Positions 5,753-45,182 of a stretch of DNA of 64,000 nucleotides are shown piece after piece. The notes beneath the pieces are model-generated. The model searched no databases. It was not told where the DNA came from and saw nothing but the letters and a program-made list of their open reading frames with translations. The stretch is from an uncultured Nitrospirales bacterium (lineage in GTDB: Bacteria; Hydrogenedentota; Hydrogenedentia; Hydrogenedentales; JAGMZX01). The stretch lies in the NCBI GenBank assembly GCA_964569295.1, contig CAZMVU010000001.1, positions 151,368 through 215,367 on the forward strand. The letters are read 5' to 3'. Both the position numbers and the translations under genes were made by a program. How positions within the stretch are numbered: the first letter of the stretch is position 1; the number at the start of each line of letters is the position of its first letter.

Positions 5753-5846
5753 GAGGCACCAACGGCGGCTGGGCCTCAGTATAATGCACGTTGCCCTGCT
5801 GGCGAAACGGTGCGCCCGTTGTGCCGGTCAAACCCGGTGAAGTAGC

Positions 5847-6704
5847 ATGGCGGCGCTCGCACGCCCGAGCCGGCATTTCCTGAATGTCCGCAAGGCAAGC
5901 CGCGCCACGGTGTGCGGGCCTTTGTGCCATGAATGGACGGCCTTGCCGGGCCCGGGAAGTACCGCAAGAATCGAGGCAGCAGTGCAGTGTAGTTTGGTAA
6001 TACCGGCATACAACGAGGCGGACCGCATCGTGGATACGTTGCATGGGGCGATCGGCTATCTCGACGCCGAGCCTTATGACGCGGAAATCATCGTGGTCGA
6101 CGACGGCAGCGATGACGGCACCCGTGCGGCGGTCGAGGGGGTGGGCGCGGCTGGGCGCACGCCGGTAAGGTGCGTGCATTATGCGGCAAACCAAGGCAAA
6201 GGCTTTGCCGTGCGCGAAGGCATGGCGGCGGCCACCGGCGATTACCGTGTGTTCTACGATGCCGACGGATCGACTCCTATCGCGGAATTGGAAAAACTGT
6301 GGCCACGCTTCGAGGCGGGCGCCGATGTCGTGATCGGGTCGCGCTCGCTGCCGGAATCCGACGTGGCTGTGCGGCAGGCCTGGTACCGTGAGTGCATGGG
6401 CAAAGTATTCAACGGCGTATTGCGCCTTCTCGGGCTCACCCGTTTTCGGGACACCCAGTGCGGTTTCAAAGGGTTCACAGCCGCGGCCTGCGCCGTGATA
6501 TTTCCCCGGCAGACAATCATGCACTTCAGCTTTGATGCCGAACTGCTCTATATCGCCCAGCTGCACGGCCTGCGTGTTGACGAGGTTCCCTTGCGCTGGC
6601 TCAACGAGCCGAAGTCACGCGTGCATCCCGTCCGCGATGCTGTGCGTATGTTCTGGGATCTGCTGCGCGTGCGTTGGCGTGCATTGCGCGGCGGTTATGA
6701 TTGA
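5847..6704 (+). CDS. Family 2 glycosyltransferase, dolichyl/polyprenyl-phosphate hexosyltransferase-like
   Basis: GT2 signature (LVIPAYNE ... VVDDGSDDGT ... DADGS). The first roughly 45 aa of the ORF may be an over-extension, and the true start could be internal. Confidence 0.7.
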   Translation: MAALARPSRHFLNVRKASRATVCGPLCHEWTALPGPGSTARIEAAVQCSLVIPAYNEADRIVDTLHGAIGYLDAEPYDAEIIVVDDGSDDGTRAAVEGVGAAGRTPVRCVHYAANQGKGFAVREGMAAATGDYRVFYDADGSTPIAELEKLWPRFEAGADVVIGSRSLPESDVAVRQAWYRECMGKVFNGVLRLLGLTRFRDTQCGFKGFTAAACAVIFPRQTIMHFSFDAELLYIAQLHGLRVDEVPLRWLNEPKSRVHPVRDAVRMFWDLLRVRWRALRGGYD

Positions 6705-7077
6705 GCCGCTCGAGGGCACCGGCCGTCTTGGGCGCCGGGGACAATCACCCCATTTCGGGTTTTGCATGCACCGTATACGTACCACCCGAATTCACTCTTG
6801 CCAAAATACGCTCAGAAAACACACACGCCGGCGTTCATTTTCGGGCTGGATGGGCGCCGCATATTCTCGAGACCGTTACTTTCATGAAGAGACTTGCGTC
6901 CATTTCGTCATGCCTGTGAAAGCAGGCATCCAGAAAAGACGCCGGAAACGCTGTACGACCGGCTCTGGATTCCCGCCTGCGCGGGAATGACCGTTTGTTT
7001 CGATTCTGCAACGGTTTCCGAAAAATTGCCTTGGACAGTAGTGAGCGAGGGAAAATACTGATCACAGGAGTACCACC

Positions 7078-8382
7078 ATGAGTCATTCGGTCAATCGAAG
7101 GCAGTTTCTGGGTGCCGCCGCGGGCACGGCGGCTTTCGGCGTGTTGGGTGCGGGCAAGGCCAACGCACAGCCGGACTCGGTCCGCGTGGGGATTATTGGA
7201 ACGGGGAACCGGGGCACGGCGCTCCTGCGCATCCTGCTCAAGATGGACGGCGTGCAGGTACCGGCCATCTGCGACATCGACACCAAGGTGGTGGAGCGCG
7301 CGGTGGGGCTCATCAGCGAGGCCGGCCAGCCCGCGCCGAAAACCTACACCCGCGACGAGCACCACTACAAGGACCTATGCACCCGCGACGATCTCGATGC
7401 GGTCATCGTCGCAACCCCGTGGCAGTGGCACGCACCCATGGCCGTCGACGCGATGAAGGCCGGCAAGTATGCCGGGGTCGAAGTGCCCGCAGCGATTACC
7501 GTGGACGAGTGTTGGCAGCTCGTCGACACCTCGGAGGAGACCGGCGTGCCCTGCATGATGCTCGAGAACTGGAGCTTCCGGCGCGACAACCTCGCCGTGC
7601 TGAACATGGTGCGCGAGGGGCTCTTCGGTGAGATCATGCACACCCAGGGCTGCTATGGCCATGATTGCCGCCATTGGTTCTTCAGCAGCGACGGATCGAA
7701 CCGCTGGCCCGGCGGCTTCATGGCAAAACGCAATTGCGACCAGTATCCCACGCACGGCGAGGGACCGATCCTTTCATGGATGGACATCAACTGCGGCGAT
7801 GCGTTCGATTACGTCACCAGCACCGCCACAGCGCAGCGCGGTATCCACGCCTGGTTCAAGGAAAATCTCGGCCCCGACCACCCGAAGGCACAGGAAGATT
7901 GGCCCCAGGGCGATATGGTCCATACTATCGTGCGCACGAAGCAGGGCAAGAGCATCGCCATCGTCGGGGACATGCAGCTCCCCCGCCCCTACGACAACCG
8001 CTGGCTCCTGCAAGGGACCGGCGGCATCTACAGCCACGAGCACGACGCCGTGTTCATCGCCGGCCGGAGTCCAAAGGACCACGAGTGGGAACCCTTCCCG
8101 CCGTACATCGATGAGTTCGACCACGTCTGGTGGCGCACCATGGGTGAGAAGGCCATGGCAGCCGGCCACGGCGGCACGGACTACATCGAGTTGAAACTTT
8201 TCCTCGACGCGGTGCGTCACAAGACACAGCCGCCTATTGACGTGTACGACTCGGCCACCATGAGCAGTATTGTGGGCTTGTCCGAGGCGTCGATTGCGAA
8301 GGGCAGCGCCCCGGTGGACTGTCCCGATTTCACACGCGGCAAGTGGCAGACGCGAAAGCCGGCCTTCGGCTTACAGGCTTGA
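7078..8382 (+). CDS. TAT-secreted Gfo/Idh/MocA-family NAD-dependent oxidoreductase (GH109-like)
   Basis: Twin-arginine signal (RRQFLGAAAGTAAFG) and a Rossmann GIIGTGNRG motif. The GGAG-like RBS is 'acaggag' upstream of the ATG at 7078. Confidence 0.8.
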   Translation: MSHSVNRRQFLGAAAGTAAFGVLGAGKANAQPDSVRVGIIGTGNRGTALLRILLKMDGVQVPAICDIDTKVVERAVGLISEAGQPAPKTYTRDEHHYKDLCTRDDLDAVIVATPWQWHAPMAVDAMKAGKYAGVEVPAAITVDECWQLVDTSEETGVPCMMLENWSFRRDNLAVLNMVREGLFGEIMHTQGCYGHDCRHWFFSSDGSNRWPGGFMAKRNCDQYPTHGEGPILSWMDINCGDAFDYVTSTATAQRGIHAWFKENLGPDHPKAQEDWPQGDMVHTIVRTKQGKSIAIVGDMQLPRPYDNRWLLQGTGGIYSHEHDAVFIAGRSPKDHEWEPFPPYIDEFDHVWWRTMGEKAMAAGHGGTDYIELKLFLDAVRHKTQPPIDVYDSATMSSIVGLSEASIAKGSAPVDCPDFTRGKWQTRKPAFGLQA

Positions 8383-10428: not shown

Positions 10429-11760
10429 TTACTCCGGCGCATCGAGGTCCGCCAGCCAGGCCTCCGAGATGACTTTCCCGACGAGGAAGAACTTGCGGTC
10501 CGGGTGCCAAAGCACGAACGCACCGTTGCGCCGCGTGGTGCTCGGGTACACGCCGATGTCCGTGCGCGTGAGCGGGCCGATTCCGACACCGTCGTTGTCC
10601 ATCAGTTCCTTCGATTCCGAGAACCAGATGGGCTGTTCGGCATCCGGGCGGTATTCACCCAGCGCGATAAACGCGGGCCGCCGGTTCTTGCCCGTCTCCT
10701 CGCGCTTCGATCCCTCGAAGTGGCCGTCGTTATTGTGGTGCAGGAGCACATAGCGGCCTGTTTCATACTCGTAGATGGGGCAACAACACAGCGGTTCCTG
10801 AATCGGGAGTCCGTGGTCCTTGCGCAGGAGCGGCCGCGGATTGCACCAGCTTGCGCCGTCGTCGCCGCTGAGGCTGTACCAGATATACCCGGTCATGGTG
10901 CGCATGGTGCAGAAGAGGCGGCCGTCGGGCAGATAGACCAGGCTCGGCTCCTGCGCAATGCTCAGGTCCGGGTTGTCGTAATGCGGGACCTGCAAGGCCG
11001 CATCCGGGTCCGACCAGGTGACCTCGATGTCCTCCGGCTCGGGATTCTCATCGATGTTCTCGAAGCGCATGAACTCGACCACCGACTCCGCGGCCGTCCA
11101 CGAGTTGATGTGGGGCTCAGTGCGCACCGCCGGGCTCACCCAGCGCGTGAAGCCGGTGAACCACTTGCCATCGTGCGTGCGGATGGGCTTCTGCCACACG
11201 ATCCAGTTGCTCGGGTACTTCTCATCCGGGTGATCCCAAGGGCTGCGCTTCATAGGGATGGTCTGCGGCTCGGACCACGTGGCGCCGTTGTCGTCCGAGT
11301 AACAGGCGTCCATCGTGCCGGTGATCTGGTGGTGGTAATCGGCGATCCCCTGGTACTGGTTCCACACCACGTAGATGCGCCCCGACGTCGACACCATGGG
11401 GAAGCCCCAGCTCGCTTGCAGGCCTTTCTTCGGCTTCGTGGCGCCGACGATGCGCTTGGGCTCGGCCCAGGTCTCGCCGTCATCTTCCGATCGGGAGAAC
11501 ATGATCCGGTGGTCGCCCGCGCCCTCGTACGAGCTCTGGGTCCACACCGCCATGAGCGCGCCGTCCGGCCCATCGAACACCAGGAAATGTTCGTTCCCGG
11601 TGTCGAAGGTCGAGCCATCCACGCTGCCCGGCACGTAGACCACGTAGTCCGGGGCAGTGCGCTGCAACTCACGCTGCAGGATGGTCTCGGTGGATTCCGC
11701 CTCTTGCGCCGCACCGGACACGGCAACGGCAAGCAACATCAGCCAGGATAACAAGCGCAT
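10429..11760 (-). CDS. Secreted BNR/sialidase-fold (exo-alpha-sialidase-like) glycosidase
   Basis: Signal peptide (MRLLSWLMLLAVAVSGAAQ) and repeated S-x-D-x-G-x-T-W (BNR) motifs (SEDDGETW, SDDNGATW, SGDDGASW). Confidence 0.7.
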   Translation of the reverse strand: MRLLSWLMLLAVAVSGAAQEAESTETILQRELQRTAPDYVVYVPGSVDGSTFDTGNEHFLVFDGPDGALMAVWTQSSYEGAGDHRIMFSRSEDDGETWAEPKRIVGATKPKKGLQASWGFPMVSTSGRIYVVWNQYQGIADYHHQITGTMDACYSDDNGATWSEPQTIPMKRSPWDHPDEKYPSNWIVWQKPIRTHDGKWFTGFTRWVSPAVRTEPHINSWTAAESVVEFMRFENIDENPEPEDIEVTWSDPDAALQVPHYDNPDLSIAQEPSLVYLPDGRLFCTMRTMTGYIWYSLSGDDGASWCNPRPLLRKDHGLPIQEPLCCCPIYEYETGRYVLLHHNNDGHFEGSKREETGKNRRPAFIALGEYRPDAEQPIWFSESKELMDNDGVGIGPLTRTDIGVYPSTTRRNGAFVLWHPDRKFFLVGKVISEAWLADLDAPE

Positions 11761-11969
11761 GGCACGAACTCCCCGGGTTGTGTGTCCGGGAACAGGGTAG
11801 ACCAAGAAATGTCCGTGCGCAAGGGCAACGCCGCGTCAGTCACCGGACCGAAAGTCCCGCGGCGGAGAATTGCGTGACACGAATTGACACAGCGGCCATA
11901 ACCGCAACCAAAGTGGAAGAGGCTTCGAGCCTCTTGGGTAGCTGTTTTGTGCCTTACACGCCGGAACGG

Positions 11970-14326: not shown

Positions 14327-16747
14327 ATGTTGGGAAGCGCGTTACTCGTATGCGCCACACTGCTCACAGCACCGGACGCCTACTTTCAGGAAGCGGAGCC
14401 GGTCTGGGTGGAAGGCCGGGAAACGGAAAAGAACCTGTCGGTGCGTTTTCGCGCCGCGGTTTCGCTCCCGGAGGAACAACCGGCCACCTTGCGAATCGCC
14501 GCCTCGACACTCTACCGCGCCTATGTAAACGGGGCATTCGCGGGCCATGGCCCGGCCCGCGCGGCGCATGGGCACTACCGGCTCGATGAATGGAACCTGG
14601 CGGAGGCGCTCGCGCCAGGGCCGAATGTGGTGGCGATCGAGGTGGCCGGCTACAACGTAAACAGTTACTACCTGCTCGATCAGCCCGCCTTCCTCCAAGC
14701 AGAAGTAGTATCGGGCGGTGAGGTCCTCGCGGCGACAGGCGGCGCTGCGGGGACGGCCTTCGAAGCATCGATCCTCGATGAGCGCGTCCAGAAAGTGCAA
14801 CGGTTCAGTTTTCAGCGGCCGTTCATCGAGGTGTACGATCTCGCGCCGGGGTGGGACACCTGGCGCACGGCCCCGGAAGCGGATTTCCCCCCCGCACCAC
14901 TGGCCAAACAGGCGGCCAAAACGTTGATCCCGCGCAACATGCCCTACGCCGAATTCATGATCATGCCGGCGCAGGCCCAGGTCGCCAGGGGCACAATGGG
15001 CCCGGTGGAGGGCGACGTCAAGCTTTGGAAAGACCGCGCGCTGGTGAACATCGGGCCGGATCTCGGCGGCTACCCGGAAGACGAGTTGGACCTTGTGCCG
15101 TCGAACATTCTTCAGCACATGGAAACGAAGTCCCGCCACGCCCTGGGAAAGCCCTTCCACAAAGACCAGCTAATCGCGATCGAAGAAAACGATTACCACA
15201 TCATCGACCTCGGGCGGAACCTGTCGGGATTCCCGCGGTTCACGATACGGTGCACCGAGCCGGTGCGGTTGTATGTCACATGGGACGAGATTCTCATGGA
15301 AGGCGACGTGAACTGGCGGCGCCTCGGCTGTGTAAACATACTCACCTGCGACTTCGCGCCGGGCACCTACGAAGTCGAGACTTTCGAGCCATACACCATG
15401 CGCTACCTCAAGTTCATCGCGGCGCAGGGCGCGTGTGCGGTGGCAGACATCGGCATGCGGCGCTATGAAAACCCGGCCACCCACAAGGCGCGCTTCGCCG
15501 CGAGCGACCCGCAACTCGGCGATATCTTTGAAGCAGCCGTGCATACCTACGCGCAGAATGCGGCGGATTTGTTCATGGACTGTCCGCACCGGGAACGCGC
15601 GGGCTGGCTGTGCGACTCGTACTTCATCGCGAACGCGGCGCTCCACATCTCCGGCAATACGGTTATGGAGCGCGCGTTTCTGGAAAACTACGCGCAGGCG
15701 GCGGACTTCGCGTACCTGCCGGATGGCATGCTGCCCATGTGCTATCCGGCGGACCACTACAACGGCGTGTTCATCCCGAACTGGGCGCTGTGGTTCGTGG
15801 TGCAACTCGGCCCATACTCCGAGCGCAGCGGCGACGAGGAACTCATCGAAAGGCTGAAACCGAAAGTGTGCGCGCTGTTCGACTACCTCGAGCCTTTCGA
15901 GAATGAAGACGGCCTGTTGGAAAAACTCGATAGCTGGGTATTCGTCGAGTGGTCGAAAGCAAATGAGTTCGTGCAGGACGTGAACTATCCGTCGAACATG
16001 CTGTATGCCAAAGCGCTGGCGACGGCGGCAAAGCTCTACGACATGCCCGCGCTCGCGGCGAAGGCCCGGAAAACGCTCGATACCGTGCGGGAGCAGTCGT
16101 TTGATGGCGAGTTCTTCGTGGACAACGCGGTGCGTAAGGAAGACGGCAGCCTCGAGGTGACGCAAAACCACTCGGAAGTCTGCCAATACTTCGCGTTTTA
16201 CATGGGTGCAGCGACGGCGAAGGAGCATGGGCAATTGCAGCAAACACTCATCGACGCATTCGGTCCGGACCGCATCGAGAAAGGGCTGCATCCGGACGTG
16301 CACCCGGCGAATATGTTTATCGGGCATATGCTCCGCCTCGAGTTGCTGTCACAGTGGGGTGAGTATGAGAAAATTCTGGAAACGCTCAAGGGGAACTTCC
16401 ACCACATGGCCGTGGAAACGGGGACTCTGTGGGAGAACGACGGCGATTACGCGAGTCTGAACCACGGCTTCGCCAGCCACGCCGCGGTGAGCCTGTACCG
16501 TGACGTGCTCGGTGTGCAGATCAATCGCGCCGCCAAACAGGTGAACGTGCGGGCGCCGGCGATACCCGTGGCATGGTGCGAGGGCGCATTGCCCGTGGAG
16601 GGCGGCGAGGTGTTCGTGCGCTGGGAGCGCGATGCCGGGGCGGTCGACGTGACCATCGAAGCACCGGCGGGCTTTACCTATTGCGCGCAGGCAGCGGACG
16701 GTATCGAGATAGGTGCCGTCAAGACGAACATCGCAGCCGCGCTGTAG
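14327..16747 (+). CDS. Alpha-L-rhamnosidase (GH78 family), secreted
   Basis: Signal peptide. GH78 six-hairpin catalytic-domain motif (FMDCPHRERAGWLCDSY). Length about 800 aa. A GGAGGGGA RBS is present. Confidence 0.8.
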   Translation: MLGSALLVCATLLTAPDAYFQEAEPVWVEGRETEKNLSVRFRAAVSLPEEQPATLRIAASTLYRAYVNGAFAGHGPARAAHGHYRLDEWNLAEALAPGPNVVAIEVAGYNVNSYYLLDQPAFLQAEVVSGGEVLAATGGAAGTAFEASILDERVQKVQRFSFQRPFIEVYDLAPGWDTWRTAPEADFPPAPLAKQAAKTLIPRNMPYAEFMIMPAQAQVARGTMGPVEGDVKLWKDRALVNIGPDLGGYPEDELDLVPSNILQHMETKSRHALGKPFHKDQLIAIEENDYHIIDLGRNLSGFPRFTIRCTEPVRLYVTWDEILMEGDVNWRRLGCVNILTCDFAPGTYEVETFEPYTMRYLKFIAAQGACAVADIGMRRYENPATHKARFAASDPQLGDIFEAAVHTYAQNAADLFMDCPHRERAGWLCDSYFIANAALHISGNTVMERAFLENYAQAADFAYLPDGMLPMCYPADHYNGVFIPNWALWFVVQLGPYSERSGDEELIERLKPKVCALFDYLEPFENEDGLLEKLDSWVFVEWSKANEFVQDVNYPSNMLYAKALATAAKLYDMPALAAKARKTLDTVREQSFDGEFFVDNAVRKEDGSLEVTQNHSEVCQYFAFYMGAATAKEHGQLQQTLIDAFGPDRIEKGLHPDVHPANMFIGHMLRLELLSQWGEYEKILETLKGNFHHMAVETGTLWENDGDYASLNHGFASHAAVSLYRDVLGVQINRAAKQVNVRAPAIPVAWCEGALPVEGGEVFVRWERDAGAVDVTIEAPAGFTYCAQAADGIEIGAVKTNIAAAL

Positions 16748-36201: not shown

Positions 36202-37062
36202 TCATTGTAACGGTGCAAGCTCGATCTCGTAGACCCGCGGCCAGCGCTTGCCGGTAACAAAGAGCCGGTCCCCTGCCGCATCGTAGGCAATGCCGTTCAG
36301 TACACCAGGACGCTTACCCGGCAACATGGTGTCCAGAATTCCATCGAGATCAATCCACGCGGTAACCGTCCCGTTCTCTGGATCAATGCCCACGATGTAG
36401 TCGCTCTTCCACACGTTTGCAAATACCGTCCCGTCGATGTATTCGAGCTCGTTCAGGTTACTCACCTCATTGCCACGATCATGAACCACGACCATGCGGT
36501 CAACCTCGAATGTGTCGGTGTCACGGAAGTACAGCCGGTGGGACCCATCGCTCATAATGAACTGCGCACCATCATGGGTAAGCCCCCAACCCTCCGTATC
36601 GTAGCTGTACGTGCGCAGCAGGTCGAACGTCTCCCGGTCGTAGACGAATGCGGTGTTCTTCCGCCAGGTAAGCTGCACAATCTCATCAGCCACGACCGTG
36701 AGCCCCTCGCCGAAGTAGCGTGCATCGAGATCGTGCTGTTGCAACACATCGCCCGTTTCCGGCACGGCACGGCGCAAGCTCGACTGGCCGTAGAGCCCGG
36801 TGCTCTCATAGAAGACGCCGTCCACGTATTGCAGGCCCTGGGTGAAGGCGTTTTCATCGTGCGGGTATGCGTTGATAACGGTATATCCGAAAAACTCGGG
36901 TCCGGCCGCCGCAGGTTCACCTTCCCTATCGTCTTCATGTTCCGGTACTGCTTCACTCTCGCCATCCAAGGCGGGGGGATTCTCCGTTTGCGGCGGCGTG
37001 CAGTTTGTCATGGCCACCAAGAGAAACACCAAGATGACCGCCATATACTTCAGTAAATGCAT
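36202..37062 (-). CDS. Glutaminyl-peptide cyclotransferase (plant/bacterial beta-propeller type), secreted
   Basis: Signal peptide, then the Glu_cyclase_2-like pattern (GYTVINAYPHDENAFTQGL ... GLTHDG). Start chosen at the ATG at 37062. Confidence 0.7.
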   Translation of the reverse strand: MHLLKYMAVILVFLLVAMTNCTPPQTENPPALDGESEAVPEHEDDREGEPAAAGPEFFGYTVINAYPHDENAFTQGLQYVDGVFYESTGLYGQSSLRRAVPETGDVLQQHDLDARYFGEGLTVVADEIVQLTWRKNTAFVYDRETFDLLRTYSYDTEGWGLTHDGAQFIMSDGSHRLYFRDTDTFEVDRMVVVHDRGNEVSNLNELEYIDGTVFANVWKSDYIVGIDPENGTVTAWIDLDGILDTMLPGKRPGVLNGIAYDAAGDRLFVTGKRWPRVYEIELAPLQ

Positions 37063-37221
37063 CGTCCTCTCGCAATCTCGCCGGGGCAGGCGGGCAGACG
37101 AGCCGTGCACGCATACCCCAACCCTGCTCCACAGCAAAGAGAGGAACACAACCAAGCGGCCCTTATACGACGTTGGTGCGTTCCGCTCGTGGCTCGCTGC
37201 ACACTGTCCACAGTACTCCTG

Positions 37222-38373
37222 CTACACATGGGCGCCATTATACCAGCACTTCCTTGCCTCACCGGCATAGGCGGCAATAAGCGCCGGGTCAGCGTCGAAA
37301 AAGTGATCGGACGGACTAAGTATATATCCGCCGCCATCGCCCGCGGCCTCGAAACAACGCCGCACTTCGGCGCGGGTTTCTTCCGGCGTACAGTCCTTGA
37401 AAAAGTGGAACTGGTCGAACCCGCCGATCAGGCCCACCTTGCCGCCGATACGCCGCTTCGCCTCCGCGAGGTCCACATCGCCGCCCATACCCACCGGGGT
37501 GAAGGTCTCGAGCGCGTCCGGCCCCATGGCGGCGAGGTCTTCGAGGATGGGCATCATGCCGCCGCAGGTGTGGTAGACCACGCGCTGACCGGCTTCATGG
37601 GCTGCGGCAATGATGGGGGCGTCATAGGGCGCCACGAAGTCGTTGAATATCTGCGGCGAGATTACCGTGGTCGAGGCGTCGCCACCGCCCAGCTCCAGGA
37701 GATCGTAGGGCGCGCCGTGCATGGAGGCGACGTAGTTCAGCTTGCGGTCGCGCAGAATAGCGAGGAACTCGTGCACCCACTGCGGGTCTTCAAAGGCCGC
37801 CATGATCAGTTTCTCGATACCGTACAGACACGCTGCGTCCTGCCAGCAACCGGGTTGGCCGCCGGTGGGAAACATGGGGAACGTGCCGCGGACAAGCCCA
37901 CGCCCGCCAAAGGCGGCGGCATCACGTTGCGCGGCGGGCACGTCGCACACGGGCCACGGCGCGAACTCCGCAAGAATCTCGATGTCCCGCTTCTCCTTGA
38001 TGGGGTACTCGAGCTGCCAGGTGGTGTGCGGATTCTCTTCAGAGACAGTGGTCAGCGTGCCTTTCGGTGTGTGAATGGCCGTGCGCGTGGCGGAACCATG
38101 GCGGCCCTCGGCCGTCTCCTGTTCGTACCACCACTGGTCCGACTCGACCCACTCGGGGACCGTTTCGCTATGGCGTTCGCCGCGCGCAGTATCCGGCCCG
38201 AAGTGAACCGGCCATGTGATCGGGTCCAGTCCGAAGTGGTCGAAGAACGTCTGCTCGCCCATGCCGCCCATGTAGTTATCGAGGAAATACGGCATCACGT
38301 GGTGCGTGGTCACCGGCAGCCGGTCGGGCGTGCGGCGTTCGAGCGCGGCGATGAAACGTTCCTTGGGTGTCAT
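37222..38373 (-). CDS. Uroporphyrinogen-decarboxylase-like (URO-D/MtaA/CmuA family) protein
   Basis: The N-terminus (MTPKERFIAALERRTPDRLPV) and overall length are typical of the URO-D-like family. Its stop overlaps the upstream kinase start by 4 bp. Confidence 0.7.
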   Translation of the reverse strand: MTPKERFIAALERRTPDRLPVTTHHVMPYFLDNYMGGMGEQTFFDHFGLDPITWPVHFGPDTARGERHSETVPEWVESDQWWYEQETAEGRHGSATRTAIHTPKGTLTTVSEENPHTTWQLEYPIKEKRDIEILAEFAPWPVCDVPAAQRDAAAFGGRGLVRGTFPMFPTGGQPGCWQDAACLYGIEKLIMAAFEDPQWVHEFLAILRDRKLNYVASMHGAPYDLLELGGGDASTTVISPQIFNDFVAPYDAPIIAAAHEAGQRVVYHTCGGMMPILEDLAAMGPDALETFTPVGMGGDVDLAEAKRRIGGKVGLIGGFDQFHFFKDCTPEETRAEVRRCFEAAGDGGGYILSPSDHFFDADPALIAAYAGEARKCWYNGAHV

Positions 38374-39560
38374 GGCGTGTCCGCGGGGCCGTGCCAGAGT
38401 TGCGTGTCATTCTGCCACTGCCAGCCCTCGCCGTGAATCTGGGGGTCGATAAGCGGCAGATCATGCGTGAGGAACTGCGCCGTCTTTTCCCAGGGGTGAA
38501 TACCGCTGACGGCGTCGAGCGCCTGCACATTCTGCCAGCCGCAACACGTCGCGTAGCGCAGGGCCGTCTCGATGGGCAGGCCGCGCAGGTAGGCCGCGAG
38601 CAGGCCGGCAATCGAACTGTCGCCGGAGCCGGTGGCGCTGCCAAAGGCGGGCACTTCCCATGCCGGGGCCCAGAGTTCGCGGTGCGTCCAGTTCGCGTTG
38701 TCGCCGGGTTGCGCCGCACCAAGGCTGCCGAGGGCCGGCGCGGTCTTCAAATAGAAGCCACGGTGGCCGGACTTGAGCGCGGCCATCTTCGCGCCCAACC
38801 CGAGGCACTCGTCCGCGAGGTCCGAGTAGCGCGCGGGGGTGATCACGTCGATGAGTTCCGCGCCGCCATGTTCATGCTTCATCGCGAGGAACTCATCGGG
38901 GTGAAGCATGTAGAGCGTTTCTTCGATCGACGGCAGGTAGATATCGACGTGCGGCAGGATGCGCGCGAGAATCTGCCGCCATGGCGCCTTGCCCGCCGGC
39001 GACTCGGGGTCCGGCAGCGCCATGTCGCACGAGGTGGTGGCGCCCGCTGCCTTCGCGAGGCGGAACACCTCGGCCAAGGCTTCGCCCTCATTCTCATACA
39101 TGTGCCGCATGAGCGGCGGATAGCCGAAGTGAAAATGGCGGCACTGCGCAATAAGCTGGGGGTCCAGGTCTTCCGGGCCGAAGCTGTCGTTTGTGCCCGG
39201 GTTGTGCAGGAAGATGCGGTCGATCCCCGGCGGTGCAATGACCACGGTGTAGGAGCTGCCCGCCCCTTCCACCTGGTGTACGCCTTCCGCGTTCCCGGAT
39301 TGATCGAGCAGTTGCGTGGTGAGCCTGCCCAATTCGTCACTGCCGACGCGCGCGCAGAAACTCACCGACGCGCCGAGGGTCTTGAGGTTGATACCGGTGT
39401 TCGACACGGGACCGCCCGTGCTGATCATCGCCTCGCCAACGTTGACCAGTTTGCCGGGGGTCAGAATCTGCGCGATCTCGCGGGCGCCGGTGTCGGGGAA
39501 GCGCGGGATCACGTCGATGCAGACGTGCCCGGCCACCATGATGTCGAATGTGCGGGTCAT
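38370..39560 (-). CDS. PfkB-family carbohydrate kinase
   Basis: Ribokinase-like pattern with a C-terminal anion-hole (GSGDSSIAGLL) and an N-terminal GHVCIDV. It sits 5 nt downstream of the GH38 gene. Confidence 0.8.
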   Translation of the reverse strand: MTRTFDIMVAGHVCIDVIPRFPDTGAREIAQILTPGKLVNVGEAMISTGGPVSNTGINLKTLGASVSFCARVGSDELGRLTTQLLDQSGNAEGVHQVEGAGSSYTVVIAPPGIDRIFLHNPGTNDSFGPEDLDPQLIAQCRHFHFGYPPLMRHMYENEGEALAEVFRLAKAAGATTSCDMALPDPESPAGKAPWRQILARILPHVDIYLPSIEETLYMLHPDEFLAMKHEHGGAELIDVITPARYSDLADECLGLGAKMAALKSGHRGFYLKTAPALGSLGAAQPGDNANWTHRELWAPAWEVPAFGSATGSGDSSIAGLLAAYLRGLPIETALRYATCCGWQNVQALDAVSGIHPWEKTAQFLTHDLPLIDPQIHGEGWQWQNDTQLWHGPADTP

Positions 39561-39564
39561 GGGC

Positions 39565-42417
39565 TCATTCCTTGTAGGTCTCGAACTTCACTTCTATCGT
39601 CGCAATTTTCTGCGGCGGCACGTCCACCGGAACCAGGCCCGCATTCCGGTCCAGTGTGATGTCGCGCAGACGACCCTCATTGAGGTTGGTTTCCCACGCG
39701 GCGACGATGGGCGCAAAGAAGTGCAGGTTCCCCTGCTGCGTCTCGCCGGTGGGATTGTAGAGGCGCACTACCGCGGTGTCGAGGTCTTCGGTTTTCTTGA
39801 AGGCCGCGAACCGCAGGTGCGTGTTGTCGATGCTGAAGAGCGCGGCCTCGCCAGCGGGTAGAGCGCTGTGCACCGGCGCATGCTTGCGCGTCTGCACGAG
39901 GCGCGGCGCCACGTTGAACCGCTCGGCGTCGAGTGGGATTTCCGCGGCCTGCCAGTCACCCCGGTGCGGACGAATGGCGTAGCGGATGGTGTGCTGGCCG
40001 AGACATTGTCCGCCGTTCTGCGACGGAAACGACGACCCGACGCGCGTCTCTGTGCAAATCCAGTTTCGTACCGCCCGCAAGAGCGAGAGCTTCACGGTGC
40101 GCTCGCGGTTGTCGGTAACTTCGTATTCGGTAAGGGAGTTGTGGAAGAACGCCAGGCCGATGTGGCCGTCGCTCACGTCGACAAAGTTGTTGGTCGGCAG
40201 AGTGGCCATGTCAGGCCACACGCTGTCCGGCGCCGGGCCTTGTGGCCGTATCGCGCGCCGGTCCACGGTGAAGTGCCCGCCCGCGTCGGCATGGGTGGCG
40301 CTTGCGATCCCCGAGGGAAAACATGCGCGCAGGTAGTGGTCTTCGATCTGGTTGTCGAAATCGACGGTCACCTCGACCTGCTCCTCCCCCGCTTTCAACG
40401 TCACCGTCGTGCGGATGTTGAGATCGGCCATGGCACCGCCGCGCCGCTGCTGCTCGTGGTTACCGTGCTGCGGCAGGCGCAGGGTCACCTCGCTCACCAG
40501 CGACGCGCGCAGCGGGCCGCTCTCCTCTGCCCAGATGCGCGCCGCGCAGCCACGGGAGGTGAAGGTCTGCTGGTGCATGGGCCGCGCGTTAATCCAGTAG
40601 TCGCCGTGTTCACCGCGGTCTTCGTAGTAATTGAGGCCGGCGAAGGTGCGGCTGAGGCCCTTGTGCGTGAGGTCGAAGGTGCCGTTCGGGTTCATCTCGA
40701 TGCGAAGGTGCTCGTTCTCGAGCGTATTGGGCGCGGCGAGCAGCGTGCCCGTGCGTGCCTGGGAGTCTTGCCAGGGCACGCCCGATTCCTGCGCGTCGTC
40801 CATGGAGCCGATTCGGAACACTTTGTAGCCGCCCGCCGGCGCCTCGCCCGTGTCGAAGAAGATGCGGTGGCGCGTGCAGTTGAAGGGAAACGCCCGGGTG
40901 TGCAATTCACCCACGGGGTAGCAGTCGTTTTCGTAGCCTTCCCACTGCGTACCGAGCGGGTTTCCGGCGGCGTCGAACACTTGTAACTGGTTCGCCGGCA
41001 GCGGCCAGTGGGCGTTCGCGGCAATTTGCCCCGGCACGTTGACATACGCCTCGAGCACCTCGCGCCGCGCATAGGGCAGCGGGTTGAACACCACCAGCAA
41101 GATGTCCTCCTCCGCGAAGGCGGTGCAGTCGATGTCGCGCACCAGTTCCTGCATGGCACGGTCGCCGAGGGCCTCGGCTATCTCGATAACCTGGTCGAGC
41201 CGGTGACTCACATCCGCCGCCGTCTTATCCTGGGTGACGCCGTTGATCGAGTCGTGTGGATGTGATGCGAGCAGGTATTCCCAGGCCGTGCGCAGCAGGC
41301 GGTCGGGGAACTCGGCACCCGCCAAGGCCGCCAACACGCCGAACGGCTCCGCATAACGTATCAACAGGTTCTGGGCACGCTTGTTCTTCCGCTTGAGGTA
41401 CAGCCGCGTCGACAGCGCGTTGCCCGTCAAGGGGCCGGCCGGACCGTCACGCAGCTCGCCATCGACTACGGGTAGCTTGCCGCGGTCAATTTTCTCGCGC
41501 AGCACATCGAGATAGGCATCCATCGTGGTGTGTACCCACTCGCGCTCCGGGTCCGGGTCAACTTCGTTTACCCGCGCCATCATCTCCGGGAACATGGGCT
41601 GCGCGGCCGTGTAGTCGCACCCGTTCATCATGAGGCGGTCGTCGGGCAAGAGCGAGGCGTCCATCGTGGCCCACGCCGCCTCGACCTGTTCCGGCGTGAT
41701 AATTTCCGGGAACCAGCGGACGGGCGCATCGAGCATCTGGTGGTCCTGCTCGTGGTGTGCCGGGTCAGCGCGGTGATAGGCGAAACCGCCGTCTTCCCAG
41801 CGGTAAACCCAGCCCGGCCCTTCATGGTCCACGCCGAAGAGGCCCGTGAGGTGGATCTTGAAGTAGAAATTCTGGCGGCCCAGGTCGCCGAAGCGCGTCG
41901 AGAGCAGTTCCGAGCCATCCGGCCCGCGCCACAGGAACTCGCAGTGCGGCGCCCGCGCCTCGCTCACCCGTTTGCCGATAAGCGCTACGTCGATGCCGAA
42001 TCCCGCGTAAAGCTGTGGGAGCTGCGCCGTCTGGCCCCAGCCGAAGGGGGTATAGCCCGCATTGAACACACCGCCAAGGCGCTCGGCGAACCGCCGCCCC
42101 CACAGCAGGTTACGCACCATGGACTCGCCGTCGATGGGGTACTCATCCGGCAGGACGTACCATGGCCCTGTTTGCAGCTTGCCCTCGGCCACGAGCCGCT
42201 CGATACGTGCGCGCATCTCGGGCCGTATTTCGAGGTAGTCGAGCACCGGCGCCACCTGCCCGTCAAGCAGGAAGCCGGGGTATTTGCCATCCTCGAGCAC
42301 CTCGACCAGCTCATCCATGAAATCCTGGAGCATAAGGCGCGTACCCCAGATGGGATAGCGCCATTCCCGGTCCCAATGCGTATGCGATACCACGTAGGCC
42401 GTGCGTTTTTTCGGCAT
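39565..42417 (-). CDS. GH38 alpha-mannosidase / mannosylglycerate-hydrolase-like (cytosolic)
   Basis: GH38 N-terminal motif (AYVVSHTHWDREW), about 950 aa. Start at the ATG at 42417. The upstream 50-aa ORF extension was rejected. Confidence 0.88.
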   Translation of the reverse strand: MPKKRTAYVVSHTHWDREWRYPIWGTRLMLQDFMDELVEVLEDGKYPGFLLDGQVAPVLDYLEIRPEMRARIERLVAEGKLQTGPWYVLPDEYPIDGESMVRNLLWGRRFAERLGGVFNAGYTPFGWGQTAQLPQLYAGFGIDVALIGKRVSEARAPHCEFLWRGPDGSELLSTRFGDLGRQNFYFKIHLTGLFGVDHEGPGWVYRWEDGGFAYHRADPAHHEQDHQMLDAPVRWFPEIITPEQVEAAWATMDASLLPDDRLMMNGCDYTAAQPMFPEMMARVNEVDPDPEREWVHTTMDAYLDVLREKIDRGKLPVVDGELRDGPAGPLTGNALSTRLYLKRKNKRAQNLLIRYAEPFGVLAALAGAEFPDRLLRTAWEYLLASHPHDSINGVTQDKTAADVSHRLDQVIEIAEALGDRAMQELVRDIDCTAFAEEDILLVVFNPLPYARREVLEAYVNVPGQIAANAHWPLPANQLQVFDAAGNPLGTQWEGYENDCYPVGELHTRAFPFNCTRHRIFFDTGEAPAGGYKVFRIGSMDDAQESGVPWQDSQARTGTLLAAPNTLENEHLRIEMNPNGTFDLTHKGLSRTFAGLNYYEDRGEHGDYWINARPMHQQTFTSRGCAARIWAEESGPLRASLVSEVTLRLPQHGNHEQQRRGGAMADLNIRTTVTLKAGEEQVEVTVDFDNQIEDHYLRACFPSGIASATHADAGGHFTVDRRAIRPQGPAPDSVWPDMATLPTNNFVDVSDGHIGLAFFHNSLTEYEVTDNRERTVKLSLLRAVRNWICTETRVGSSFPSQNGGQCLGQHTIRYAIRPHRGDWQAAEIPLDAERFNVAPRLVQTRKHAPVHSALPAGEAALFSIDNTHLRFAAFKKTEDLDTAVVRLYNPTGETQQGNLHFFAPIVAAWETNLNEGRLRDITLDRNAGLVPVDVPPQKIATIEVKFETYKE

Positions 42418-42609
42418 GTTGCCCTCGCTGCTGATGCGTTGCGGTGACTCCCCAAGAAACAAGGCATTGTACGGAATACCACAGGGGACAGTCACCCCCG
42501 CCTGCGGTCGTGCATGCAGAAAGAATTTGCTATACTTAATGAAAGTTGCATCGCGTTGCCTTGACAAGGCTCGATGCGGACCGCGTGAACAGCCCGGCGA
42601 GAGATTCTA

Positions 42610-42825
42610 ATGACAAAGCTGAGTTCAGAAAGCATGACGATCCAAGAAAAACTGCGCGCTATGGAAGCGCTTTGGGACGACTTGGTCAGCCATGCGGACA
42701 AGGTAAATTCGCCCGCCTGGCACGATAAGGTGTTGTCTGATCGTGAGAAAGCCGTACAGCGCGGCGAAGAAGTCGCGGAAGACTGGGAAGCGGCGAAGCA
42801 GAGGATACGGCAGGAAGCACAGTGA
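42610..42825 (+). CDS. Addiction-module antitoxin component (TIGR02574-like)
   Basis: Pattern MTIQEKLRAMEALWDDL ... is typical of the putative addiction-module component. Its stop overlaps the downstream toxin ORF start. An alternative start lies at 42634. Confidence 0.6.
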   Translation: MTKLSSESMTIQEKLRAMEALWDDLVSHADKVNSPAWHDKVLSDREKAVQRGEEVAEDWEAAKQRIRQEAQ

Positions 42826-43116
42826 AGGTGCGGATTCTCCCCTCGGCCCAACGTGACCTTACTGAGGGCGGTCGTTTCTACGAGAAACAGGCACCAGGTA
42901 TGGGCGCCTATTTTCTCGACGCGCTCTTCGCAGATATCGACTCACTATATTCTGTACGGCGGCATTCATCCTGTCTTCTTCAAGCGCTTTCACCGTATGC
43001 TCTCGAAGCGCTTCCCATTCGCCATTTACTACCAGGTCCAGGAAAAAGCCGTAGTGGTTTATGCCATCCTGGATTGTCGGCGTGATCCAGCGTGGACACG
43101 AGAGCGGCTGACCTGA
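42822..43116 (+). pseudogene. RelE/ParE-family toxin disrupted by a +1 frameshift near 42945-42955
   Basis: Frame A (42822..) gives MKVRILPSAQRDLTEGGRFYEKQ ... FADIDSL, the toxin N-terminus. Frame B (ending at 43116) gives ... GGIHPVFFKRFHRMLSKRFPFAIYYQVQEKAVVVYAILDCRRDPAWTRERL, the toxin C-terminus. Together they make a normal roughly 95-aa toxin. No homopolymer lies at the junction. Confidence 0.6.
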
Positions 43117-43134: not shown

Positions 43135-43233
43135 CTCAATGCTGTGGCCGGTCTCCTGACCACGCCACTCATCGCTGTGGCCGGTCTCCCGATCGCGCCA
43201 CTCATCGCTGTGGCCGGTCTCCCGACCGCGCCA
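43135..43233. repeat. Three tandem 33-bp direct repeats (ctcaWYgctgtggccggtctccYgaYcRcgcca), plus a degenerate 4th unit at 43234..43257
   Basis: Read directly: copies at 43135-43167, 43168-43200 and 43201-43233. An inverted 20-nt core copy (ggtcaggagaccggccacaa) lies at 43301-43320, and a short inverted fragment (gtggagacc) at 43271-43279. Confidence 0.85.
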
Positions 43234-43334
43234 CTCCTGCGACCGAAGGTCTCCCTCCCAGAATACAACAGTGGAGACCTTGCGGTCTGAACAGTCGCTC
43301 GGTCAGGAGACCGGCCACAACGTTAACCTGCCCC

Positions 43335-44498
43335 CTAACCCGCATCCTCCACAACCACCCTTTGCCGCGCAGCGTCAGAGATCCAGTCCTTCGCGCGGAT
43401 GTCTTCCTCTGTAAAAGTGGCCATGAGGATGTGCCGGGCGCCGCGGCGCTCGAAGTCGTAGATGCAGTATATGGTACCGTCGGCCGCCTGCACGGTGTCG
43501 GGATAGGAGACGCCCTTGCGCTCGTCAACGACGAGTCCCCCCTTCCAGCTCTTGCCGTCGTCTTCTGACAGGTAGGCCGTGAGGTGCGAGCGGGTCTTTT
43601 CATCGGGCGGGTTATGACGCACGAGCAGCAGGTTGCCCGAATCCAGTCGGCGGATGTGAAACCGCGCGGAGGGGTGCGGGATGCCGCTGGGTTCCCCGGA
43701 CGTCCAGGTCTTGCCTCGGTCCGTCGAGGTGCTCATGCCGATCCCGTACCGGGTACGCACGAGCATCCAGAGGGAGTCATCGGCCCTTTCGACGATCATG
43801 TGCTCGTCATAGGTGGTCTCCGGCACGAGCGCCTGGCCAAGGAACTCGATGGTTTCCCCCTGATCCGTCGAGATGTACACATTCGAACCGCCCCGGTCCC
43901 CGACATCGTGCGTGTATTCCTCTGGCGCTTTGGATCCCGTGTTGCGCCAGCCGGCAATCGGAAACAACCACTCGCCTGTATCGAGCGCGGTGGGCTTGTT
44001 CATCATGACGCCATCGGCGATACGCCGCGGCTCGGACCACCCGGGCCCCGCCTTGTCCGGCTCATCCGTGGTAATGCACCACACGCCGCCGCGGCCGTCC
44101 CACCACTGGTAGGCCTGCGCCCAGAACAGCCAGAGTACACCTTCCGGGTCCACCCATAGGCACGGGTCGTAGGCGCGGACCGGGTCGGCCGGGTCGATGA
44201 CGAGCACATCATCGGACCACGTGGCGCCGTCGTCGCCAGAGGTCTTGAGCACCACATAGTTCTCTGGCCCTTCGCCCTCGCCGCCGGTATACCATGTGGC
44301 CCAGAGGCGGCCCTCCGGTGCCCGCGCGATGCCCGGAATCCCCTGAAACTCCCGGTCCGCCGGGGCATATTCCGGGCCCGGATCAAGGTTCACCGGCGGC
44401 GCCTCCAATGCCGGCCCGTCTTTAATGTCTGCAAAAGCGGTGGTGGCAAAGGCCAGAATGCCTGACAGGGTAAGAAGAAGAATGTGACGCATGTTCAT
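43335..44498 (-). CDS. Secreted BNR/sialidase-fold glycosidase (second copy)
   Basis: Signal peptide (MNMRHILLLTLSGILAFATTAFA) and BNR motifs (SGDDGATW, STDQGET, STDRGKTW, SEDDGKSW). A GGGAG RBS precedes the ATG at 44498. Confidence 0.75.
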   Translation of the reverse strand: MNMRHILLLTLSGILAFATTAFADIKDGPALEAPPVNLDPGPEYAPADREFQGIPGIARAPEGRLWATWYTGGEGEGPENYVVLKTSGDDGATWSDDVLVIDPADPVRAYDPCLWVDPEGVLWLFWAQAYQWWDGRGGVWCITTDEPDKAGPGWSEPRRIADGVMMNKPTALDTGEWLFPIAGWRNTGSKAPEEYTHDVGDRGGSNVYISTDQGETIEFLGQALVPETTYDEHMIVERADDSLWMLVRTRYGIGMSTSTDRGKTWTSGEPSGIPHPSARFHIRRLDSGNLLLVRHNPPDEKTRSHLTAYLSEDDGKSWKGGLVVDERKGVSYPDTVQAADGTIYCIYDFERRGARHILMATFTEEDIRAKDWISDAARQRVVVEDAG

Positions 44499-44591
44499 GT
44501 TGTGGCTCCCGGGTTTTAACGCTTCAAAACGGGCATCCCCGCACTCAGGGGATAATAGCACCCGAAACCCGGCACGGGCCATACTGGCGGG

Positions 44592-45182
44592 ATGAGGCGG
44601 GCGCCTGCTAAGATCACGTCTACGGGCTGCCGGCACGAGAAGTCCCAATGCGTGCTTGCCTCCTGGAGTACACGCCACGTGAAACACAGTCTGACCACAA
44701 CCACGCTCACCCTACGCGAAGTGCGGCGGCACCCGTTGCGCATACTGCTCATTACTGTGGGCGCGGCGGTAGTGGCATGCCACGGCGGACTGCTGTATGC
44801 CACCATTCAATCCCCTGCGGACTTTGCGTCTAACGCGCCGTATGCCGCGCTCCTGCTCACGGCCGCCGCCGGGCTCACCGCGGCCTTGCTTCGGGGACGC
44901 GCAGCGGTGCGGGCAGCGCTGTACACGGCCGGGCTGCCGGCCGGCCGGATCCTGCGCATCGAGACTGCGCGGATTGCCGGCTTTGTTCTGCCAGGGGCGC
45001 TGCTGGGACCAGGGACTTGCTCCCTTGCGGTAACATGCCTCGGCGAGCCCTGCGAACAGCCGCTGCATGCGCTACCGCTGTTCCTCGCCGGCGGTCTTGG
45101 CCTTCTCCTCATGGTGCTGATGCTGGCACTGCCGTGCATCCTCACCGATCGAACGGGCACACGCCACGGAGATGCGGCATGA
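44592..45182 (+). CDS. Small polytopic membrane protein, translationally coupled to the ABC ATPase
   Basis: 4 to 5 hydrophobic segments. The stop overlaps the ATPase start (ATGA at 45179-45182). The true start may be internal. Confidence 0.45.
   Translation: MRRAPAKITSTGCRHEKSQCVLASWSTRHVKHSLTTTTLTLREVRRHPLRILLITVGAAVVACHGGLLYATIQSPADFASNAPYAALLLTAAAGLTAALLRGRAAVRAALYTAGLPAGRILRIETARIAGFVLPGALLGPGTCSLAVTCLGEPCEQPLHALPLFLAGGLGLLLMVLMLALPCILTDRTGTRHGDAA

Follow-up and report, generated by a model that had tools for sequence, protein, structure and literature searches.

The closest described relatives of the protein considered here belong to the UroD superfamily, in which every characterized member other than HemE is a corrinoid-linked methyltransferase, some of them with zinc (PMC13222342, PMC10418091). 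OdmB, VdmB, MtvB, MtoB, CdmB and CmuA transfer a methyl group from an ether or a halide to a corrinoid protein (PMC13222342, PMC10418091). The zinc ligands of MetE are His618, Cys620, Glu642 and Cys704, an arrangement common to MT2-A, and HemE is not a metalloenzyme (PMC539065). In porphyran use, a cytochrome P450 demethylates 6-O-methyl-D-galactose as an accessory enzyme that frees the monosaccharide (PMC10033563). The present analysis concerns 64 kb of DNA (hereafter the window) from an uncultured Nitrospirales bacterium, placed by GTDB in the Hydrogenedentota (contig CAZMVU010000001.1, positions 151,368 to 215,367). In keeping with this placement, a public protein of a Candidatus Hydrogenedentota metagenome-assembled genome was matched perfectly. 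At 37222-42417 of the window, a protein with the URO-D fold is encoded in an operon with a glycoside hydrolase family 38 (GH38) alpha-mannosidase and a PfkB-family sugar kinase. We class the locus as an operon for alpha-mannoside catabolism that includes an orphan UroD/MtaA-superfamily protein.

All three genes lie on the minus strand. The GH38 gene (39565..42417; 950 amino acids, aa) is first, the PfkB gene (38370..39560; 396 aa) is in the middle, and the URO-D gene (37222..38373; 383 aa) is last. The GH38 frame begins with ATG at 42417 and stops at 39565-39567. The frame is open further upstream to a TTG at 42567; the ATG was taken as the start because homologs align from residue 2-3 of the ATG-started protein, and GAGGG is found 6 nt 5' of it. 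Both junctions were read directly: GAA TGA gccc ATG ACC gives a 4-nt spacer between GH38 and PfkB, and CCA TGA overlapping ATG ACA gives a 4-bp ATGA stop/start overlap between PfkB and URO-D. A sequence-only reading of the window had described three co-oriented genes with spacers of 5 nt or less and a 4-bp overlap of the last two, and had assigned them to GH38, PfkB and URO-D; the anatomy was borne out, and all three proteins exceeded the Pfam gathering thresholds for these families. The G+C content at third codon positions was 0.79-0.84 versus 0.44-0.48 at second positions (genome 62% GC), and the called frames are therefore the coding frames. Inspection of the N-termini revealed no signal peptide in any of the three proteins. 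A cytoplasmic location is therefore plausible for all of them, in agreement with the earlier description of the GH38 enzyme as cytosolic.

A promoter-like -35/-10 pair (GTGACT-18 nt-TACAAT) was located upstream of the GH38 start by consensus scan (42466..42495, minus strand). The scan returned three sigma-70-like sites against 1.5 expected in shuffled sequences, so that this pair is not statistically distinctive, and neither the promoter nor the terminator scan gave matches more frequently than chance. The best explanation of the arrangement is that the three genes form one transcription unit for the cytoplasmic use of alpha-mannosides. Their co-orientation is not attributed to chance because the GH38-kinase pairing recurs among 84 independent kinase loci and the coupled kinase-URO-D pair recurs in a further Hydrogenedentota locus (L168, below).

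The GH38 protein matched the Pfam families Glyco_hydro_38N, Alpha-mann_mid, 38C and 38C2 at 104.5, 34.3, 58 and 37.5 bits, each above its gathering score, and the metal motif SHTHWDREW is visible near the N-terminus of the translation. The closest solved relatives were the enzymes of Enterococcus faecalis (3LVT/5KBP) and Streptococcus pyogenes (2WYH), at E values of about 1e-80 to 1e-71; both are general alpha-mannosidases. The four-domain architecture, cytoplasmic location and N-terminal metal motif are common to these enzymes, to Escherichia coli MngB and to the window protein. The only NCBIfam model matched was the MngB equivalog NF007331, at 371 bits (residues 259-942), which is far below its cut-off of 1138. 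The window enzyme further differs from MngB in having a PfkB kinase as its partner rather than a phosphotransferase system (PTS).

The kinase matched PF00294 (PfkB) at 82 bits. The hallmarks of this family are a GG lid motif and a C-terminal G-x-G-D motif with the anion hole and catalytic Asp; STGGPVSNTG and GSATGSGDS were invariant in 16 homologs of the window kinase. When specificities were compared by equivalog (ribokinase, fructokinase, 2-keto-3-deoxygluconate (KDG) kinase, IolC, tagatose kinase and ribose-1-phosphate kinase), none of the NCBIfam cut-offs was reached; the best score was 63.9 bits against a cut-off of 330, and the weak matches included KDG and IolC-type kinases. No PDB profile match was better than E 4e-11. 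Judged by its sequence, the kinase represents a distinct and widely conserved PfkB clade of about 400 aa ('PfkB400'), with more than 2,100 homologs and over 60% identity across Planctomycetota, Hydrogenedentota, Sedimentisphaerales and others; the cultured Fontivita pretiosa (Planctomycetota) is among the carriers. The commonest neighbors of this clade were a GH38 of the window type, a lyxose/mannose-isomerase-like cupin or a URO-D-fold protein. A homolog of the window GH38 directly adjoined the kinase on the same strand in approximately 31-35 of the 84 kinase loci (about 40%), and a Lyx_isomer-like cupin preceded it in 6. In 11 loci the kinase was followed by a conserved protein of 316 aa, 63-71% identical among its members (L090, L094, L097, L102/L167, L107, L110, L112, L120, L121 and L131; e.g. 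L167 13840-14793). This protein had no Pfam domain and no significant PDB sequence match (best E 0.56). The idea that it is a diverged URO-D protein was discarded at an hhalign probability of 1%.

The third protein matched Pfam URO-D at 88 bits over residues 174-355 only. The hemE model TIGR01464 gave 22.5 bits, limited to residues 192-351, against a cut-off of 302.95, and the MtaA/CmuA model TIGR01463 gave 67.6 bits over residues 180-345 against a cut-off of 235.4. At the position of PVWxMRQAGR, which with its two Arg residues we take to be the N-terminal substrate-binding motif of HemE, the clade of the window protein has the invariant D-R-L-P-V-T-T-H-H-V-M (PVTTHHVMPYF) without an Arg pair. 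No heme, tetrapyrrole or cobalamin synthesis genes were present among the annotated genes of the window. A bona fide hemE was rejected on the curated model score, the replaced N-terminal motif and the absent heme context; the sequence-only reading, which depended on the gene not being hemE, was sound on this point. Orthology with MtaA was rejected on the score of its curated model.

An AlphaFold model (20 homologs; mean predicted local distance difference test score (pLDDT) 86, predicted template modeling score (pTM) 0.88) showed a TIM barrel with a beta-rich insertion of about 70 residues (approximately residues 55-125). The predicted fold is that of URO-D/MtaA, equally similar to both and much less similar to MetE. 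HemE therefore has the barrel in common with the window protein, which differs in its putative metal site and in lacking the Arg-rich substrate motif and a tetrapyrrole context. In a PDB profile search MtaA ranked first (E 3e-6; the MtaA/MT2-A methylcobamide:coenzyme M methyltransferases, PDB 4AY7). The family motif YHTCGG aligned with LHICGN of MtaA, so that the His-x-Cys pair coincides, and the Glu one strand later is kept; HemE has LFTKGG at this place and hence no His-x-Cys. The identity to MtaA is only 15-18%, and the window protein is distinguished from it by the beta-rich insertion, by Asp/His in place of the last zinc Cys, by the His-His after strand 1 that is invariant in its clade, and by a context of bacterial sugar catabolism rather than methanogenesis.

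Conservation of the candidate metal site was counted in 30 full-length relatives of 24-58% identity. His268 and Glu289 were kept in all 30, Cys270 in 28, Asp356 in 23 and His357 in 15; Trp177, Gln178, Asp320 and Gln321 were also conserved in the tight clade. In the model, His268 and Cys270 were placed at the end of a strand and in the loop that follows, Glu289 at the end of the next strand, and Asp356/His357 in the loop after the last strand. In MetE and the core MetE-like proteins (PDB 1T7L, 3RPD, 1YPX), the ligands occupy the same strand ends (His/Cys after strand 5, Glu after strand 6 and the fourth after strand 8), the fourth being Cys in MetE and Asp/His here. Because the conserved residues occupy the ligand topology of MetE and MT2-A, we infer a zinc-type site that would be formed by His268, Cys270, Glu289 and Asp356 (or His357).

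The tight clade of the URO-D-fold protein is about 60% identical across many phyla. More than 4,550 database clusters were matched, 91 clusters at 50% identity with E ≤ 1e-30, and relatives were encoded in 550 of 599 pattern-matched stretches from a collection with one genome per species; the best 80 stretches were nearly all from metagenome-assembled genomes (MAGs). Metagenomic sequences of the clade number in the thousands. Carriers among the best 80 included Hydrogenedentota, KSB1, Aminicenantes, Anaerolineae, Bacteroidales, Cytophagia, Ignavibacteria, Calditrichia, Spirochaetales, Kiritimatiellales, Sedimentisphaerales, Planctomycetaceae, Verrucomicrobia, Terriglobia and others. Database names for clade members were only 'uroporphyrinogen decarboxylase family protein' or 'hypothetical'.

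Open reading frames (ORFs) were called in 82 loci carrying the URO-D gene, clustered, and their families checked with Pfam. A sugar context, especially of the mannose type, recurred. Sugar-porter transporters of the major facilitator superfamily (MFS) were found in 12 of the 82 loci, mostly adjacent; Lyx_isomer (lyxose/mannose-isomerase) cupins in 9, frequently with a stop/start overlap; GH38 enzymes in 8, directly adjoining the URO-D gene in L017, L026 and L061; sulfatases in 7; and a different PfkB protein of 320 aa in 6. Also recurring were xylose-isomerase-like TIM barrels (AP_endonuc_2), beta-helix (GH141-like) proteins, GH3, GH76, GlcNAc_2-epim, GFO/IDH/MocA and, twice, MGH1-like domains. 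Many loci held one to four extra URO-D-superfamily genes of other subfamilies, of which at least 20 were counted. Some homologs stood alone among unrelated genes (L002, L169, L170).

B12-binding corrinoid proteins were found within 10 kb of the URO-D gene in 8 of the 82 loci, in some cases adjoining it. Five loci (L023, L025, L027, L070 and L082) had both a corrinoid protein and a MetH-activation-like protein. The full operon of corrinoid protein, MetH-activation-like protein, PfkB, Lyx_isomer and URO-D was present in L025 and L027; L070 had the corrinoid operon without a called isomerase, L082 had PfkB upstream of the corrinoid gene, and L023 and L069 were partial. L027 also encoded a GH38 enzyme and a homocysteine S-methyltransferase, of which L023 had a homolog. 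A one-strand cluster in L028 (824-11158, plus strand) was led by GFO/IDH/MocA, a URO-D-thioredoxin fusion of 539 aa, a CobW-type GTPase and two URO-D paralogs, and continued with a corrinoid protein, a GH141-like beta-helix protein and the main-clade URO-D gene. In L056 a complete methanol-type set (MtaB, MtaA-like protein, corrinoid protein, DUF1638 and RACo; 1752-8284, minus strand) was divergent from the main-clade URO-D gene and a further paralog.

The complete, exact triplet is seldom found. Its conserved core is GH38 with the kinase of about 400 aa, and the URO-D gene is a variable add-on. When the window GH38, kinase, glutaminyl cyclase and sialidase-like (BNR) proteins were used as tblastn queries against the 82 URO-D loci, the kinase had no match and GH38 only five weak ones; the neighbors found to recur there on clustering were a different set. 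In the closest relatives of the locus (L101, L088 and L091), GH38 was 66-68% and the kinase 65-69% identical and no URO-D gene was present. The conservation of the triplet that the sequence-only reading had looked to does not hold in its strict form because these relatives are without the URO-D gene and the window kinase is unmatched in the URO-D loci; the part that survives is the pairwise linkage, since GH38-kinase, kinase-URO-D and GH38-URO-D each recur independently. In L168, from another Hydrogenedentota MAG, URO-D (66%) came after the kinase (69%), the two genes again overlapping by 4 bp, and GH38 was missing; L093 had URO-D (72%), the kinase and a URO-D paralog. All three families recurred on one strand in L102/L167 (Planctomycetes, same contig), where L167 24-18172 encoded five URO-D-superfamily proteins, two GH38, two PfkB, an MFS_2 transporter, DUF4432 and a Mannitol_dh_C dehydrogenase. 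The cluster was followed by an IS21-type transposase pair. The kinase ortholog of L168 (5928-7004) was called at 358 aa and aligned only from residue 46 of the window kinase, so that its N-terminus may be truncated or frameshifted, or its start mis-called. The history that best explains these patterns is that, in the host genome, the URO-D gene was added onto a conserved GH38-kinase pair and became translationally coupled to it.

As to function, it is tentatively proposed, at somewhat less than an even chance, that the URO-D-fold enzyme removes an alkyl group, probably by O-demethylation, from a modified mannose-type sugar, so that the kinase step can proceed. The family of the GH38 enzyme suggests that it would cleave imported alpha-mannosides and release mannose or modified mannose, and the family and conserved pairing of the kinase suggest that it would phosphorylate that hexose, as such or after isomerization to the ketose. 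The URO-D-fold enzyme would strip an alkyl substituent, most likely O-methyl, that otherwise blocks use of the sugar. By analogy with the corrinoid-dependent O-demethylases and haloalkane methyltransferase I enzymes, zinc would polarize the ether oxygen of the methylated sugar and the methyl group would pass to a cob(I)alamin carrier, a corrinoid protein whose gene would lie elsewhere, or to some other nucleophile; the demethylated sugar would then be isomerized and phosphorylated. Methyl transfer is favored because the characterized non-HemE members of the superfamily are corrinoid-linked methyltransferases, because positions of the MetE/MtaA zinc site (His-x-Cys...Glu) are kept, because a tenth of the homologous loci carry corrinoid machinery, and because the paralog sets resemble those of the substrate-specific O-demethylases. 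OdmB, VdmB, MtvB, MtoB, CdmB and CmuA, of the same superfamily, occur as such sets, and some of them have zinc (PMC13222342, PMC10418091).

Several observations weigh against this proposal. The chief objection is that corrinoid genes are absent from the window and from most homologous loci. Within the 64 kb, tblastn with eight corrinoid neighbors of homologs found no corrinoid protein, and no activation protein or MetH-activation domain, no methyl acceptor enzyme (homocysteine S-methyltransferase) and no cobalamin riboswitch or other Rfam RNA was found. The genes of the O-demethylases usually stand together with those for a corrinoid protein, methyltransferase II and an activator, a set missing from the window and most homologous loci. 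A corrinoid gene within 10 kb was seen in only 8 of the 82 URO-D loci, all the neighbor counts being from crude ORF calls without a formal background control. Corrinoid operons of this form are found chiefly in Ignavibacteria, Calditrichia and Bacteroidota, so that the number of independent events may be small; L167 (21 kb), the cluster richest in URO-D genes, has no corrinoid gene; and no fusion to a B12-binding domain was found in the best 150 of 5,526 representatives, all of 465 aa or less. The metal site was placed by sequence positions and a predicted structure, without coordinates, and has Asp356-His357 where MetE and MtaA have their fourth ligand, Cys. The closest relatives show that the URO-D gene is not essential to the GH38-kinase pathway. 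On the chemical side, the known substrates of the O-demethylases and CmuA are aryl methyl ethers and halomethanes, and those proposed here are sugars. Aliphatic methyl ethers are poor methyl donors. No methylated-sugar chemistry has been demonstrated for these proteins, and no source of O-methyl-mannose was identified for the host.

The chief rival explanation, which is somewhat less likely, is that the URO-D-fold protein is instead a metal-dependent sugar isomerase, epimerase, dehydratase or lyase that performs no methyl transfer and acts on GH38-released mannose or on the kinase product, for instance from mannose-6-phosphate to fructose-6-phosphate or in a mannonate/KDG-type step. Such an enzyme would account for a TIM barrel with a conserved polar site of the metal type (His, Cys, Glu and Asp with Trp177, Gln178, Asp320 and Gln321), and the mannonate dehydratase UxuA has a His/Cys/His/Asp metal site on the same barrel. 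The gene order, GH38, kinase and then URO-D coupled translationally to the kinase, fits a step after phosphorylation, most homologous loci have no corrinoid gene to explain, the weak kinase matches include KDG and IolC-type enzymes, and xylose-isomerase-like TIM barrels, GFO/IDH/MocA, Mannitol_dh_C and DUF4432 among the partners are typical of sugar and sugar-acid interconversion. However, no characterized member of the superfamily has such an activity (PMC13222342, PMC10418091), and the corrinoid, MetH-activation, CobW and RACo neighbors in eight loci would be left unexplained. Up to five paralogs per locus would be odd for a central isomerase step, and a second isomerase would be redundant where a dedicated Lyx_isomer cupin is directly adjacent, as is often the case; no Lyx_isomer was found elsewhere in the window. 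The Lyx_isomer neighbors also prompted consideration of the decarboxylation of a uronate to lyxose, which was set aside by reasoning only: with neither an electron sink nor a cofactor, the chemistry seemed implausible.

The sequence-only reading had favored the catabolism of a mannosyl compatible solute (mannosylglycerate or similar) or of a mannoside phosphate, in which the kinase would act on the mannoside or aglycone, an MngB-like GH38 would hydrolyze, and the URO-D-like protein would process the aglycone. The cytoplasmic location of all three proteins, the unusually long kinase without an assigned substrate, the mannosylglycerate hydrolase model as the sole NCBIfam match of GH38, and the MGH1-like (GH63-type mannosylglycerate hydrolase-like) domains found twice near the URO-D clade are in keeping with it. 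Nevertheless that pathway found no specific support and is considered quite unlikely: the MngB score is far under its cut-off, the nearest solved enzymes are those of E. faecalis and S. pyogenes rather than MngB, and neither the operon nor the 64-kb window contains a PTS, glycerate kinase, solute transporter or other solute-specific gene. Lyx_isomer cupins, sugar porters, GH76 and secreted GH38 as recurrent partners point to mannan or mannoside sugars rather than to a compatible solute. It is likewise improbable that the protein is a zinc-dependent methylcorrinoid:thiol methyltransferase of the MtaA/core MetE type, serving methionine or methyl-sulfur metabolism and merely co-transcribed. His-x-Cys...Glu is the thiol-activating site of MetE and MT2-A, in L027 and L023 the gene has beside it a corrinoid protein, a MetH activation domain and a homocysteine S-methyltransferase, and several homologs are solitary; but across phyla no operon partners are nearly as common as sugar genes, the final Cys ligand that typifies thiol-methylating enzymes gives way to Asp/His here, multiple paralogs occur within GH38 clusters, and the 4-bp overlap with the kinase is conserved between two Hydrogenedentota genomes at 66-69% identity. 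The window offers no homocysteine or folate context. That the third gene is a genuine hemE, standing by chance after two sugar genes, can for practical purposes be dismissed, given its hemE model score, a Pfam match confined to the C-terminal half, the exchanged substrate motif, the beta insertion, the His-x-Cys that HemE lacks and the want of heme genes nearby in the window.

A broader form of the demethylation proposal would make the third gene one of a widespread, unrecognized class of zinc-dependent UroD-superfamily methyltransferases, accessories of glycan catabolism that strip sugars of O-methyl groups with no need of oxygen. A corrinoid carrier would accept the methyl group, which in some genomes would then be handed to homocysteine, and each of the many URO-D paralogs found in clusters of mannosidases and other hydrolases would demethylate a particular position or a particular sugar. 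Taken as a whole this is less likely than not. No paper was found in the literature linking URO-D-fold proteins to glycoside hydrolase loci, polysaccharide utilization loci, mannosidases or sugar demethylation. The only route of sugar O-demethylation found was the oxygen-dependent P450 reaction on 6-O-methyl-galactose. It resembles the proposal as an accessory enzyme of a glycan locus that releases a methylated monosaccharide for central metabolism; it differs in its dependence on oxygen, its release of formaldehyde and its unrelated fold, since an oxygen-independent methyl transfer would be expected here. The statement in the sequence-only reading that URO-D-like proteins outside tetrapyrrole or methyl-transfer contexts have no assigned role stands as regards sugar loci. 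Its premise that this protein stands outside methyl-transfer contexts is itself doubtful because 8 of 82 loci carry corrinoid proteins and the zinc-ligand positions of MetE/MtaA are kept. Identity with the Mlp clusters of Kountz and Balskus, which are tied to methyl-sulfur or methyl-selenide metabolism, was rejected, as these belong to a different family, closer to MtaA and mostly from Firmicutes (PMC10418091).

Upstream of the operon, an exported BNR_2 sialidase-like beta-propeller protein is encoded on the minus strand (43335..44687; Pfam BNR_2, 114 bits). A hydrophobic signal-like stretch, NMRHILLLTLSGILAFATTAFA, is found about 65 residues into its longest ORF, which suggests a later true start and export; the protein may be the operon's partner outside the cell. 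In L101 (1275-6785), the sole locus with this arrangement, BNR (57% identity), GH38 (68%) and kinase (66%) were contiguous on one strand, and the window order thus looks like the same trio interrupted by a toxin-antitoxin insertion. Between the BNR_2 gene and GH38 there is a plus-strand toxin-antitoxin pair (42610-43116), consisting of an antitoxin of 71 aa (PF09720, Unstab_antitox; 42610-42825) followed by a ParE/RelE-like toxin whose coding sequence is broken into two overlapping ORFs (42822-43085 and 42853-43116). The split indicates a frameshift and either a pseudogene or a sequencing error. A non-coding 33-nt tandem repeat (2.9 copies, 93% matches; 43141-43236) separates the toxin remnant from the BNR_2 gene. 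Downstream, 66 nt beyond the URO-D stop and on the same strand, is a gene for a secreted glutaminyl-cyclase-like protein (36202-37155, minus strand; PF05096, 323 bits) with an N-terminal hydrophobic segment. Elsewhere the window carries housekeeping genes along with glycan-related genes at scattered positions, among them a GH109-like oxidoreductase-type glycosidase (7078-8382, plus strand), a second BNR_2 protein (10429-11805, minus strand) and a rhamnosidase-like six-hairpin protein (14327-16747, plus strand). Such scattering suggests a host that degrades glycans but lacks the classical clustered loci.

Glycans of algae, plants, fungi and bacteria commonly contain methylated sugars, and Hydrogenedentota, KSB1, Aminicenantes, Anaerolineae, Ignavibacteria, Bacteroidales and Planctomycetota are known mainly from anoxic sediments and digesters. 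If the URO-D-fold enzymes demethylate sugars, they would fill a gap in anaerobic glycan turnover, tie polysaccharide breakdown to cobalamin and one-carbon metabolism, and provide an anaerobic counterpart of the P450 route for 6-O-methyl-galactose. Should their activity prove different, they would still constitute a testable orphan enzyme family. Regardless of activity, the analysis defines a new PfkB clade of about 400 aa with GH38 as its conserved partner, and corrects the routine annotation of the clade genes as 'uroporphyrinogen decarboxylase'.

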